Positions 42,192-45,503 are shown, numbered from the stretch's first letter. The stretch: 64,000 bases of DNA from a bacterium (GCA_036787775.1 DAIQOR010000003.1:9466-73465); one strand, 5' to 3'. Translations and numbers: made by a program. The notes: generated by a model not told the origin, from the letters alone.

Positions 42192-42563
42192 ATGAAAATT
42201 AGATGGCATTTGTTTTTTTCGGTGGTGGTTTTTGTAGATGTGATTTTTGCTGGGGCTTATGCTTATTAATATGTTGAATGTTGGAGCATGTTGGATTCGG
42301 TTTATTTTGTGGTTGTGACTGTGATAACGATTGGTTATGGCGATATTGTTCCGATTACAGCGACGGGAAAAATTTTTACAATGTTTTATTCTTTTTTTGG
42401 AGTTGGAATGGCGTTTTATTTTCTTTCTTTAATTGGAATTGTGATGTTTAAGAAACATGTTTCGGCAAAGGTGAGTGAAATTAAAAGAGAAGTTAAGAAG
42501 GAGGAAAAGATTAAGGATGCTGTTGATGAGGCGATAAAAAGAAATAAAAAAAGGAAGAGATAA
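42192..42563 (+). pseudogene. two-TM (KcsA-type) potassium channel interrupted by an in-frame TAA between TM1 and the pore helix
   Basis: 42192..42266 encodes MKIRWHLFFSVVVFVDVIFAGAYAY then TAA at 42267; the same frame continues into 42288..42563 with LDSVYFVVVTVITIGYGD selectivity filter and TM2. Confidence 0.6.
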
Positions 42564-42593: not shown

Positions 42594-43901
42594 ATGAAAG
42601 ATGATTTTGATTTGGTTAAGTTGAATGAAAATAGAACCTCGATAAAAGATGTTTTTGAAAGTAAGAAAAAGAGCGTTGAGATTGCGGGTTGGGTGCATAA
42701 TACTCGTGGGCTTGGGAAGATTAAGTTTTTGCTTTTGAGAGATGTTTCGGGTTTGATTCAGGTTACGGCGGTTAAGGGGAAAGTTGACGACGCTGTTTTT
42801 GAAATTGCTGATAAAGTTTCTCGAGAGTCGGTGGTTTATGTTAAGGGTTCGGTTGTGGATTCGAAACAGGCGCCTGGTGGGAAGGAAATTATTCCAGAGA
42901 AGATTTATGTTTTTGCGAGTGCGGATGAATTGCCGATTGATGTTTCTGATTTTTCTAAAACTGAATTGCCGAAGAGGTTGGATTATCGGTTTTTGGATTT
43001 GCATCGTTCGAGGACGCAGGCGATTTTTAAAGTTCAGTCTACAATTATGCAGGCGTTTAGAGAATTTATGATTAAAGAAAATGCGGTTGAAGCGGTTTTT
43101 CCGTCGATAATTAGTTCTTCGAGTGAGGGGGGGACAGAATTATTCGAGGCGAAATATTTTGATAAGAAAGCTTATTTGAGTCAGAGTTGTCAGTTGTATA
43201 AACAAATGTTGGCTTGTTCGATGGAGAAAGTTTTTTCAATTTTTACTGTTTGGCGGGCGGAGAAGCATAACACAGTTCGGCATTTGAATGAAGCGAGGCA
43301 GTTGGATTTTGAGATGGCGTTTGCGGACGAGTTTGTGGTGATGGAAGTTATGGGGCGTTGTGTTCAGTATATTATTGAGAAAGTTTTGGAAATAAATTCT
43401 GAAGAGTTGAAATTATTGGAAGTTAAATTGAAAGTGCCGAAGACGAAATATATTACTTTTGAAGAAGTTGTGGAGTTGATGAAGAAAAATAAAATTAATA
43501 TGGAGAAGCACGATTTGTCTACAGAGGCAGAGAAAAAGTTAGGGGATTTGTTTCCGGATACGATTGTTTTTGTGCATGATTGGCCATTGGAAGGCAAGCC
43601 GTTTTATATTATGCCGAAGGGAAAAAATTCTTCGAAAGGTTTTGATGCGATTTATCAAGGAATGGAGATAACTTCTGGAGGACAGAGAATTCATATTCCA
43701 GAATTGTTGGAAGAAAGATTGAAAGCGAAGGGATTGAAATCTAAGGATTTTAAGTCTTATATTGATAGTTTTAGATTTGGTGCGCCTCCTCACGCGGGTT
43801 GGGGAATTGGTTTGGAAAGATTGACTATGTTAATTTTAGGAATTCAGAATATTCGTGAAGTTACTTTGTTCCCGCGTGATAGAGATAGGCTTACACCGTA
43901 A
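42594..43901 (+). CDS. aspS: class IIb aspartyl-tRNA synthetase (possibly non-discriminating; AsnRS not excluded)
   Basis: OB-fold N-terminus, SQSCQLYKQM flipping-loop region, FRAE-type motif 2, GAPPHAGWGIGLERL motif 3; 435 aa. Confidence 0.7.
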   Translation: MKDDFDLVKLNENRTSIKDVFESKKKSVEIAGWVHNTRGLGKIKFLLLRDVSGLIQVTAVKGKVDDAVFEIADKVSRESVVYVKGSVVDSKQAPGGKEIIPEKIYVFASADELPIDVSDFSKTELPKRLDYRFLDLHRSRTQAIFKVQSTIMQAFREFMIKENAVEAVFPSIISSSSEGGTELFEAKYFDKKAYLSQSCQLYKQMLACSMEKVFSIFTVWRAEKHNTVRHLNEARQLDFEMAFADEFVVMEVMGRCVQYIIEKVLEINSEELKLLEVKLKVPKTKYITFEEVVELMKKNKINMEKHDLSTEAEKKLGDLFPDTIVFVHDWPLEGKPFYIMPKGKNSSKGFDAIYQGMEITSGGQRIHIPELLEERLKAKGLKSKDFKSYIDSFRFGAPPHAGWGIGLERLTMLILGIQNIREVTLFPRDRDRLTP

Positions 43902-43959
43902 TTCTTACTGTAATTTAGTGGTTAGAAAGCTTTAAAAATGATTAACCTTGTGGAGTTTT

Positions 43960-44058
43960 ATGGCATGCGATTGTGGAAAATGCGATGAGTGTAAGTGGAA
44001 TGCGATAGAAGACGACACTAGTTTGGACGATGATTTGGATTTCCTCGATGACGATTAG
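43960..44058 (+). CDS. small acidic CxxC peptide MACDCGKCDECKWNAIEDDTSLDDDLDFLDDD (32 aa)
   Basis: ATG preceded by ggag; not in the ORF track (<60 aa). Confidence 0.35.
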   Translation: MACDCGKCDECKWNAIEDDTSLDDDLDFLDDD

Positions 44059-44138
44059 TTTCCCTTTAGGGTTTATGTAAATCTTTAAAAAAGGTGGAAT
44101 TTTTATGTTTCTATCTAAATTAAGGAGGTAAAAATAAA

Positions 44139-44378
44139 ATGACATGTGGCGAATGCGATGAAGAAATTGAAGATGTTGAAGAAGATTCAGATGAAGAAGA
44201 ATCAGAAAATGATTCTAGTGAGGATTCAGATGATGATTCTGAAGATGTAGAAGAATCTGAAGATGAAGTTGAAGAAGAGGTTATAGAAGGGTCTGATGCG
44301 GAAGATGAAGTTGTAGAAGAAGATTCCGATGATGATGACGATGACGACGATTCCGATGATGATGAGGATGAATATTAA
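44139..44378 (+). CDS. hyperacidic protein (N-terminal MTCGECDEE, then ~70% D/E/S)
   Basis: 79 aa; strong aggagg Shine-Dalgarno-like sequence 9 nt upstream. Confidence 0.45.
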   Translation: MTCGECDEEIEDVEEDSDEEESENDSSEDSDDDSEDVEESEDEVEEEVIEGSDAEDEVVEEDSDDDDDDDDSDDDEDEY

Positions 44379-44501
44379 TCTTTCTCATTTTTTATTTTTA
44401 TTTTTATTTTTTATTGGCTAGTTTGTACCTATTTTTTAGGGCATGGAAATGTTTAAAAACTGAACAAATAAATAGTTTTATTCTAAATTGGAGGGTTGAA
44501 A

Positions 44502-44582
44502 ATGCCTGAAGACGAATATGACGATGACTATAACGAAGATGACGATGACTTCGATGCAGACGATGACTACGACGACGAGTAA
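44502..44582 (+). CDS. small hyperacidic peptide MPEDEYDDDYNEDDDDFDADDDYDDE (26 aa)
   Basis: ggaggg 7 nt upstream of the ATG. Confidence 0.3.
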   Translation: MPEDEYDDDYNEDDDDFDADDDYDDE

Positions 44583-44648
44583 GTTTCTTAGTTAGTCGAC
44601 TTTATTTTTTATTTTTTATAAATTTATATACTCTGTTTCTGAGGGATT

Positions 44649-45503
44649 TTGATGTTGGAAAGTATTTTAAATGAAAGTTCTTTGAATGAAAGTATGAAAG
44701 TTTTGATTGTTGGTGATCCACATGGAGATATTTCTAAGATTAAAAAGTCTGATTTGAAAAAAGCTGATTTGATTTTGATTACAGGAGATATTGGGAAAGC
44801 GGATTTGGCTCGGAAGCAATTTTTTGAAAATCTTAAACGAAAGAGGGAGGGTTTGCCTGAATTAGAAAAGGATGCGAAGTTTGAGAAAAAAGTTCGGATG
44901 GAAATTTATGATTCGACTTTGAGTATTGTTAAAGAATTGTCAAGATATGCTCCAGTTTATTCTATTTTGGGAAATGTTGGTTCAACAATGATTCAAGAAT
45001 TTGAAAGGAAAAAAGTGGAGAAGAAAAATAAAATTAAATTACCTTCTCTTAGAAAAGAATTAGATAAGATTGAAAATTTTTATTTGGTTAAAAATGTTTC
45101 GAGGAATATTGGGAATTTGAGGGTTGGTTTTTTGGAGCATTTTAATGATGTTTCTTGGGTTAAGGAATTCAAACCTAAAGATTATTCTAAAGAATTGAAA
45201 CGAGCTAAAAAAGAAAGTGATAAAGCAAAAAAAGTTTTGAGGAATTTTAAGAATATTGATGTGTTGGTTTGTCATGCTCCACCTTATGGAATTTTGGATG
45301 AAGTTAGTGGAAAATTTGGGGCGCCGAAACATTGGTGGGGAAAGCATGCGGGGAGCAAAGTTATTTTAGATTATGTTAAGAAATATCAACCGAAATATGT
45401 TTTTTGTGGGCACATTCACGAGGGGAAAGGAATGAAGAAGATTGGGAAATCGATTGTGTATAACGTTGGTTTTAATGGTGATTATGTTTTGTTGGATATT
45501 TAA
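44649..45503 (+). CDS. calcineurin-like metallophosphoesterase
   Basis: VGDPHGD (motif I), GDIG (motif II), CGHIHEG (motif V). Confidence 0.7.
   Translation: MMLESILNESSLNESMKVLIVGDPHGDISKIKKSDLKKADLILITGDIGKADLARKQFFENLKRKREGLPELEKDAKFEKKVRMEIYDSTLSIVKELSRYAPVYSILGNVGSTMIQEFERKKVEKKNKIKLPSLRKELDKIENFYLVKNVSRNIGNLRVGFLEHFNDVSWVKEFKPKDYSKELKRAKKESDKAKKVLRNFKNIDVLVCHAPPYGILDEVSGKFGAPKHWWGKHAGSKVILDYVKKYQPKYVFCGHIHEGKGMKKIGKSIVYNVGFNGDYVLLDI

Follow-up and report, generated by a model that had tools for sequence, protein, structure and literature searches.

DSS1/Sem1 attaches to the OB1 fold (an oligonucleotide/oligosaccharide-binding fold) of BRCA2, which then no longer binds DNA (PMC11329725), and in micro-proteins of the archaeon Haloferax volcanii two C(P)XCG knuckles form a folded zinc ribbon (PMC6562870, PMC10716476). 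During translation, ribosomes are destabilised most strongly by sequences rich in Asp, Glu and Pro (D/E/P-rich) that stand right at the N-terminus, an effect counteracted by bulky residues (10.1101/2021.02.02.429294; PMC9718836). Here we analyze three tandem open reading frames (ORF1, ORF2 and ORF3) that invite comparison with each of these systems. They lie just downstream of aspS, the gene for aspartyl-tRNA synthetase (AspRS), in a 64,000-nucleotide stretch of DNA (referred to as the window), which is contig C6 of a 755-kb genome of 91% completeness (G000; genomes and loci are given with our own numbers). The host is a tiny groundwater DPANN archaeon, Pacearchaeota-like, and the relatives used for comparison are labelled Pacearchaeota, Woesearchaeota or Nanoarchaeota (DPANN). 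Judged from the sequence, ORF1-3 belong to an unannotated aspS-downstream family of Pacearchaeota-like DPANN archaea, whose products, if our tentative functional reading holds, would act in a mode like that of DSS1 or prothymosin-alpha and not as folded DNA mimics.

Results

All three ORFs are located on the + strand, and their translations match exactly those given in a preliminary description of the window, which had pointed out that they are hyperacidic and that two of them begin with a cysteine head. ORF1 carries Cys at positions 3, 5, 8 and 11 and consists to 41% of Asp and Glu (13 of 32 residues; net charge -11). The composition is more extreme in ORF2, which has 52 Asp/Glu (66%), no basic residue and a net charge of -52, and in ORF3, with 18 Asp/Glu (69%) and a net charge of -18. 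A six-frame scan of the whole 755-kb genome for ATG-initiated ORFs of at least 20 amino acids (aa) with at least 45% Asp/Glu returned three, two of which are ORF2 and ORF3; ORF1, just under this cut-off, adjoins them. As acidic ORFs are this rare genome-wide, the strong bias of the coding strand towards purines and towards G over C does not account for the cluster.

Such a bias is the starting point for a reading in which the ORFs have no function and are chance or recently born frames in a GA-rich spacer. The GC skew on the + strand at the cluster, about +0.45, favours GAN codons, the tails are of low complexity and change fast, and the family is absent from most relatives. Codon usage differs between the ORFs, ORF3 being rich in GAC (P = 0.0016) and ORF2 being GAT/GAA-rich like the background or more so. 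Against non-function, however, stand the uniqueness of the ORFs within the genome, their position-specific occurrence across 110 loci and the comparison with relatives.

In the relative L205, AspRS is 75.5% and the phosphoesterase encoded downstream of the ORFs 62% identical to the protein of G000, while 28 of the 32 residues of ORF1 are the same (87.5%). The 14 nucleotide changes in ORF1, 10 of them at codon position 3, cause 4 aa changes, and a random placement of 14 changes gives so few aa changes and no stop in only 5 of 10^6 cases, a pattern that rejects neutrality (P = 5e-6). At identical residues the same codon is kept in 69% of cases in ORF1, 72% in aspS and 57% in the phosphoesterase gene. 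Because its synonymous divergence is similar to that of its neighbours and its protein identity higher, ORF1 is as old as they are and under stronger protein-level constraint. We also considered whether ORF1 and ORF2 had recently been transferred horizontally between G000 and L205, two lineages that are not sisters on the AspRS tree, and rejected this on the grounds that the synonymous divergence of ORF1 equals that of aspS. Within the nearly clonal population to which the window belongs, an identical ORF1 protein is annotated on at least 24 metagenome contigs. Apart from a 12-bp promoter deletion in one contig, the variants (L195-L204) differ across the region only by a synonymous single-nucleotide polymorphism (SNP) in the Cys3 codon of ORF2 (44147) and an intergenic SNP (44421), and are thus hardly informative.

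Conservation of the other two ORFs is concentrated in their first codons. In L205 ORF2 has retained its TATA box and leader as well as residues 1-9 (MTCGEC, one Asp/Glu, Glu-Glu), while the tail of the 78-aa product is fully rewritten into a Glu/Ala/Pro/Thr-rich sequence without any Asp. The same promoter and leader precede a 30-aa ORF with an MSCGNC start and an acidic tail in G020 (AspRS 70% identical), and the Cys and Gly codons of this head show synonymous differences among G000, L205 and G020. In G014 (AspRS 51% identical), a 31-aa ORF with a CCGC head and an acidic tail is found 43 nt after aspS. The MPEDEY start of ORF3 recurs after aspS in L035 and L116-118 (AspRS 79% identical), where the first seven codons differ from those of ORF3 at third positions only, and L156 carries an MLEDEY start at the same position. 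The preliminary description had left it to conservation in relatives whether these are genes or low-complexity DNA: the reading frames, and not merely GA-rich DNA, are kept, the Cys head even through synonymous codon changes. Since the frames are kept in relatives, we take the three ORFs to be real small genes, ORF1 very probably so, ORF2 and ORF3 with only slightly less assurance. With promoter, leader, start codon, frame and terminator all conserved across clades, non-function is highly improbable, and for ORF1 it is already largely refuted.

The signals around the ORFs argue for three separate transcription units (Table 1). Throughout the genome, the TATA-like sequence TTTAAAA is most frequent at positions -30..-21 relative to start codons, and a Shine-Dalgarno-like (SD-like) site of any kind is present in just 13% of the long ORFs, so that most mRNAs appear to be leaderless. 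On the + strand of the 620-nt region, TTTAAAAA occurs in three copies (43931, 44084 and 44452) compared to 0.16 expected (P = 5.6e-4). The copy belonging to ORF1 starts 29 nt before the ATG and ends 22 nt before it, the usual leaderless spacing in this genome, and the ORF1 mRNA accordingly looks leaderless. The leaders of ORF2 and ORF3, in which TTCTAAATT is followed by (AA)GGAGG(T), pair over 6-7 nt with the 16S 3' end (GGATCACCTCCT). The earlier assignment of an SD-like site to each ORF thus holds insofar as a GGAG-type sequence lies 5-9 nt before each ATG, but the 'ggag' of ORF1 is not conserved in L205. The T-rich spacers noted before are present after ORF2 and ORF3, each with runs of five or six T, and T-runs equivalent to the unit 2 terminator follow every family member. 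A TATA-like box at about 44616-44629 indicates that the phosphoesterase gene has its own promoter. A scan for sigma-70 promoters and hairpin terminators, which are bacterial-type signals while the host is archaeal, gave no match, and searches for RNA elements returned no Rfam match at the gathering score and no alternative RNA structure. That the ORFs are genes is well supported, and the signals mark each of them as a unit of its own.

The same arrangement recurs in the relatives. Alignment of 20 upstream regions gives the common pattern AGAAAnnTTTAAAAA, about 15 nt, (T)TTATTCTAAATTGGAGGT, 4-9 nt, ATG, and promoter and leader are kept in at least 15 lineages. That they are shared shows the units to be of common ancestry. 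The full shared unit, consisting of the AGAAAnnTTTAAAAA box, the TTCTAAATT-GGAGG leader, the ATG and oligo-T runs, is complete in ORF2 and ORF3; ORF1 shares the promoter, but its ATG is placed where the leader would begin. The leader motif with a following ATG is found in the host genome only before ORF2 and ORF3, and in aspS loci an acidic mini-ORF follows in 11 of 12 matches. Across the whole genomes of 61 relatives the motif does not exceed a reversed-pattern control, so it is characteristic of the family only within aspS loci and the host genome.

Several variants of these signals were seen in single loci. The variant contig L204 lacks 12 bp (window 43939-43950) in the promoter spacer of ORF1, which would shorten the distance from TATA box to start codon from 22 to 10 nt. 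A longer MPEDEY-type leader in L035:3150-3243 and L156:2360-2451 contains a conserved inverted repeat (TCTACA, 3 nt, TGTAGA) before the SD site, which may form a hairpin in the 5' untranslated region. In L210 (G019:C10, ~50229), TCTAAATT-GGAGG also precedes the gene for the ribosomal stalk protein aP1, the Ala/Pro/Glu-rich hinge of which resembles in composition the rewritten ORF2 tail of L205.

These findings bear on the possibility that the ORFs are of value simply in being translated, as acidic nascent chains that destabilise ribosomes (Mg2+-dependent in bacteria) or, in a variant of this reading, as runs of Asp and Glu codons that report the charging of Asp- and Glu-tRNA, the outcome modulating read-through into the downstream genes. 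The peptides resemble the known inducers of intrinsic ribosome destabilisation in their Asp/Glu runs, an occasional Pro right after the start codon and bulky interruptions, and ORF3 in particular (M-P-E-D-E-Y, then Asp runs broken by Tyr/Phe) fits the D/E/P-rich N-terminal type; moreover, genes handling Asp-tRNA adjoin and the tails evolve fast with their composition kept. However, the effect has been described for bacteria and eukaryotes and not for archaea, and here the peptide sequence itself is conserved, at least in ORF1, which is under clear protein-level purifying selection, and in the Cys head of ORF2. Read-through is difficult to reconcile with a T-run terminator after each ORF and with downstream genes that have their own TATA boxes at leaderless spacing, and switching with the lack of an alternative RNA structure or Rfam element. 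The absence of any Asp codon from ORF2 of L205 implies that Asp sensing is not conserved and, together with the intervening terminators and separate TATA boxes and the lack of an Rfam match, led us to reject an amino-acid-sensing attenuator leader peptide. We consider a translation-level role quite improbable.

In order to place the three ORFs in a wider context, aspS loci were fetched from genome and metagenome collections. In 105 distinct loci, ATG-initiated ORFs of 14-130 aa were counted as acidic mini-ORFs if Asp and Glu made up at least 45% of their residues. The 600 nt that follow aspS, read on the aspS strand, contain 13 such ORFs in a total of 60 kb, compared to 4 in 194 kb further downstream, and none was found in 251 kb upstream of aspS or in 642 kb of the opposite strand. 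When the cut is relaxed slightly, an acidic mini-ORF is present in 19 of 110 aspS loci. ORF2 and ORF3 belong to the family by composition and position (at least 45% Asp/Glu within 600 nt after aspS), ORF1 falling just under the composition line; it also differs from the other members in being leaderless, less acidic (41%) and under tight sequence constraint. Compared to the 44-48-aa type found in L084, L095 and L097, this locus carries three tandem copies instead of one. Shared with that type are the slot between aspS and gatC/gatA, a strong SD site, a T-rich end, a content of about two-thirds Asp/Glu and, in many cases, an aromatic C-terminus. Single Phe, Tyr, Trp or Leu residues inside the acidic runs are kept in many members, as are composition and net charge, and a terminal Tyr or Trp is frequent (ORF2, L078, L084, L095/L097, L128). 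A conserved Cys head occurs beyond G000 only in L205, G020 and G014, and most members in other lineages lack any Cys; being conserved yet restricted to few lineages, the Cys heads appear to be an add-on.

On the AspRS tree, the relatives on which are non-independent samples, the 17 of 110 loci with a mini-ORF are clustered (2 of 500 shuffles as low) and patchily distributed over the three main groups (9/23, 7/27 and 1/55 loci). At least 12 changes are needed, 5 of which are forced by well-supported branches. As promoter and leader are common across the groups, an old resident gene with many losses would be the simplest history, in which the host lineage duplicated the ancestral unit in tandem to three copies. 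In G002 and G023, the nearest genomes by AspRS identity, no mini-ORF follows aspS, and none was found elsewhere with the pattern used.

Acidic sequences at other positions were also noted. L229 (G008:C17, ~13460) has a 45-aa ORF with 67% Asp/Glu 17 nt after the aEF-1alpha gene, and L227 (G015:C1, ~183870) a 57-aa ORF (44%) that has a TATA box of its own and lies close to a gene for a DnaG-type primase, neither genome having one after aspS. In L222 (G002:C1, ~441511), an Rpo6/RpoK-like RNA polymerase subunit of 124 aa ends in a long acidic tail. A Cys-rich coding unit (GCTGTTGCGGGGGCTGTTGCGAAGA twice) with a 19-aa ORF starting MNCGGCCED was seen in L033:1440-1560 (G224:C25), after the gene for a 410-aa membrane protein and at a position unrelated to aspS.

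Patchiness of this kind, reflecting at least 12 gains or losses, and the extreme negative charge reminiscent of Ocr and ArdA (PMC3439906) are what would be expected of anti-restriction or anti-defence DNA mimics of mobile-element origin, a relationship the preliminary description had proposed. The analysis of the locus gave no support to this proposal. The ORFs lie in a conserved housekeeping context between aspS and gatCA, and no integrase, phage or plasmid genes are present in the cluster around them; no PHROG match below E = 0.15 and no PADLOC match was obtained. The equal synonymous divergence of ORF1 and aspS argues for vertical co-inheritance, and the conservation of promoter and leader across clades points to an old resident gene. 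AlphaFold (AF2) gave mean predicted local distance difference test (pLDDT) values of 56.5 for ORF1 and 59.9 for ORF2, the latter without secondary structure, which, although a weak test with inputs of one or two sequences, reveals neither a stable fold nor a folded charge array. We thus rejected the class represented by Ocr and ArdA both as a folded mimic and, with aspS, the phosphoesterase gene, gatC and gatA as neighbours, as a mobile-element or phage family, and regard a DNA mimic as the least probable of the explanations considered. From the predictions we infer that the ORF products are intrinsically disordered.

Sequence databases offered no family for the ORFs. Pfam has none at E <=0.01 for ORF1-3 and none at E <=10 for ORF2, ORF3 and eight relatives, although the composition filters of HMMER may hide weak matches, and there is no match to NCBIfam. 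ORF2 found nothing in 150 family genomes, nor did its residues 1-40 among 5.8 billion proteins, both searches being HMMER-based and blind to such sequences; a profile of ORF1 retrieved only ORF1 itself from 1.84 billion representatives. Homologues were found instead by DNA patterns, synteny and ORF scans, and since homology tools are blind here, absence elsewhere is not established by them. A PDB sequence match to a [2Fe-2S] ferredoxin loop was disregarded as non-significant (E = 5.2).

The Cys heads could suggest a simpler role, in which the peptides are minimal metallochaperones or ion reservoirs and not protein binders: Mg2+, Ca2+ or polyamines would be sequestered by the carboxylate tails, and soft metals (Zn, Cu, Fe or a small Fe-S cluster) by the thiolate heads. 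HMA metallochaperones have a loop with the motif M-[TS]-C-x-x-C, which is also found at the start of ORF2 (M-T-C-x-x-C) and of its homologue in G020 (M-S-C-x-x-C). The host genome lacks any HMA-domain protein, leaving this niche empty, ORF1 packs four conserved Cys into nine residues, and the net charges are extreme in all three products. Membership in the HMA family itself (PF00403) was rejected, as there is no HMA domain, ORF2 has no Pfam match and the remainder of the protein is an acidic tail. Metal binding cannot be the core role of a family most members of which elsewhere lack Cys, and a buffer would leave unexplained the conserved single aromatics as well as Trp13 and the Leu/Phe pattern of ORF1. 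Furthermore, no metal transporter or metalloenzyme partner is linked to the ORFs, the adjoining phosphoesterase gene having its own promoter. We therefore consider a cation or metal buffer unlikely.

The coordinates of all features are given in Table 1. The aspS orthologues of the relatives are 51-79% identical to the host gene product, and a metallophosphoesterase gene fills the same downstream slot in several of them. A GatB/GatE-family gene is found farther upstream of aspS, and a GatC-like gene and gatA farther downstream of the phosphoesterase gene. Within the population, the phosphoesterase gene is split into pieces of 183 and 102 aa in L204, and in L197 only 198 aa of it are left, with another gene, encoded on the opposite strand, coming next. 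Upstream of aspS (window 42192-42563), a small K+ channel gene is represented by a 91-aa pore-half ORF (Ion_trans_2), compared to 124 aa in relatives. Over the window (1-64000), GC skew is +0.40 to +0.50 where genes are on the + strand, a very strong strand asymmetry, and about 0 with an AT skew of about -0.27 where genes are on the - strand; these values by gene strand imply a large replication-type bias on top of a coding bias of similar size.

Table 1. Positions of the aspS-downstream units and their neighbouring genes within the window.
Feature	Position	Strand	Basis
aspS, archaeal-type AspRS, 435 aa, upstream anchor of the family	42594..43901	+	Pfam tRNA-synt_2 8e-73 and OB anticodon-binding domain
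Unit 1 promoter, AGAAAG then cTTTAAAAA (B recognition element (BRE)/TATA-like)	43924..43938	+	kept in L205, aligns with family promoters
ORF1, 32 aa, CxCxxCxxC head, Trp13, acidic tail containing Leu and Phe	43960..44058	+	sequence reading
Unit 2 TATA box (TTTAAAAAA), 55 nt before ORF2 ATG	44084..44092	+	kept in L205 and G020
Unit 2 leader, TCTAAATT then AAGGAGGT (7-nt match to 16S 3' end)	44114..44129	+	motif search, host genome
ORF2, 79 aa, MTCGEC head and 70-aa Asp/Glu/Ser tail ending in Tyr	44139..44378	+	sequence reading
Unit 2 putative terminator, T-run tract T6, T5, T5, T6, archaeal oligo-T type	44388..44415	+	sequence reading
Unit 3 TATA box (TTTAAAAA), 50 nt before ORF3 ATG	44452..44459	+	aligns with family promoters
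Unit 3 leader, TTCTAAATT then GGAGGG	44481..44495	+	motif search and family alignment
ORF3, 26 aa, MPEDEY start, then Asp runs broken by Tyr/Phe	44502..44582	+	sequence reading
Unit 3 putative terminator, T-run	44601..44618	+	sequence reading
Metallophosphoesterase gene, downstream neighbour, outside the family	44652..45503	+	Pfam Metallophos 2.5e-14

Discussion

The reading we favour, which we put at somewhat less than an even chance, is that ORF1-3 are genes in their own right, each transcribed separately, that they descend as tandem paralogues from a single ancestral unit and that they encode disordered polyanions acting electrostatically on basic proteins; the mechanism of a polyanionic partner, taken by itself, is about as likely. 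The ancestral unit would have consisted of a TATA box, a short leader with a strong SD site, an acidic ORF and an oligo-T terminator just 3' of aspS. Its product, a disordered polyanion studded with single aromatic or hydrophobic residues, would bind or shield the surfaces with which basic proteins of a Lys-rich proteome contact nucleic acids, or compete for these surfaces, candidate partners being the OB-fold AspRS, the GatCAB machinery next door, histones and Lys-tailed proteins. Single hydrophobic residues within acidic runs are typical of disordered partners that hold such surfaces by charge and by a few hydrophobic anchors, as DSS1 does on the OB fold of BRCA2 (PMC11329725). Lys accounts for 10.5% of residues in the host proteome, 58% of proteins are net positive, and the genome encodes several Lys-tailed proteins and three histone-fold genes. 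The tail of ORF2 stays acidic throughout, although L205 has a rewritten version of it and G020 an ORF shortened to 30 aa. Of the ideas in the preliminary description, a chaperone for basic proteins, or a counter-ion to them, and a cation-binding role are plausible.

Several considerations weigh against this proposal. The family is not found at the aspS site in the nearest genomes (G002 and G023) nor in about 85% of the loci, and would therefore be dispensable or relocatable. Given the acidic mini-ORFs elsewhere in G008 and G015, the link to aspS may reflect a historical slot and not a functional one. As each unit has its own promoter and terminator, no operon logic ties the units to aspS or gatCA. 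Finally, the interspersed aromatics could serve translation instead, as bulky residues countering destabilisation (10.1101/2021.02.02.429294).

An extension of the polyanionic-partner proposal concerns the Cys heads, which two copies would have gained in the host lineage. Going by the spacing of the cysteines, these heads may bind metal, and the CxxC of ORF2 or the CxCxxCxxC of ORF1 would then probably capture a metal ion and in this way dimerise or tether the disordered tail. In the Rad50 hook, two copies that each contribute one CxxC hold a single Zn ion between them, and a pairing of this kind would give a metal-dependent dimer. It is conceivable, if decidedly unlikely, that the Cys-headed copies are metal-bridged polyanions whose nucleic-acid-like tail regulates the binding of tRNA or DNA by a specific basic partner, either the non-discriminating AspRS/GatCAB 'transamidosome' whose genes surround them or the histones. 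If so, they would represent an archaeal, microprotein-sized counterpart of DSS1/prothymosin-type regulation with a metal switch.

Genes this short and of such low complexity escape gene callers and every profile database, and yet the expression signals of these mini-genes are among the strongest in a 755-kb genome with little room for ballast. Should their products be polyanions of high abundance by which basic nucleic-acid-binding proteins are managed, they would supply a missing piece of charge handling in ultra-small, Lys-rich archaea and extend to prokaryotes the principle of the 'disordered acidic partner', of which DSS1, prothymosin-alpha and histone chaperones are known cases. The tandem triplet offers natural variants for comparison, and the Cys-headed paralogues a concrete experimental handle.

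Of the described systems, the zinc-finger micro-proteins of Haloferax volcanii (PMC6562870, PMC10716476) share with the ORFs their archaeal origin, a length below 70 aa and a small Cys cluster as the only obvious feature. ORF1, however, has a compressed CxCxxCxxC (one C-x-C-G) and ORF2 a single C-G-x-C, both followed by acidic tails without a predicted fold; neither carries two C(P)XCG motifs, and we did not assign them to that class. Ocr and ArdA (PMC3439906) resemble the products described here in being so strongly negative that they could compete with nucleic acid, but they are folded dimers with a fixed charge array, reside on mobile elements and are represented in PHROGs, whereas ORF1-3 lack a predicted fold and lie among housekeeping genes of the chromosome. 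The resemblance to DSS1/Sem1 extends to small size, disorder, a composition rich in Asp/Glu and isolated Trp/Phe/Tyr anchors. DSS1, a eukaryotic partner of BRCA2, RPA and the proteasome lid, binds through acidic stretches with aromatic anchors, and the OB fold that it contacts in BRCA2 is also the fold of the anticodon-binding domain of the adjoining AspRS. In sequence the two are unrelated: ten family members match no Pfam family at E <=10, the DSS1/Sem1 profile (PF05160) included, and the peptides here are shorter and some are Cys-headed. The resemblance is thus likely to be one of mode of action and not of family membership, what is seen here being a pattern of composition only.

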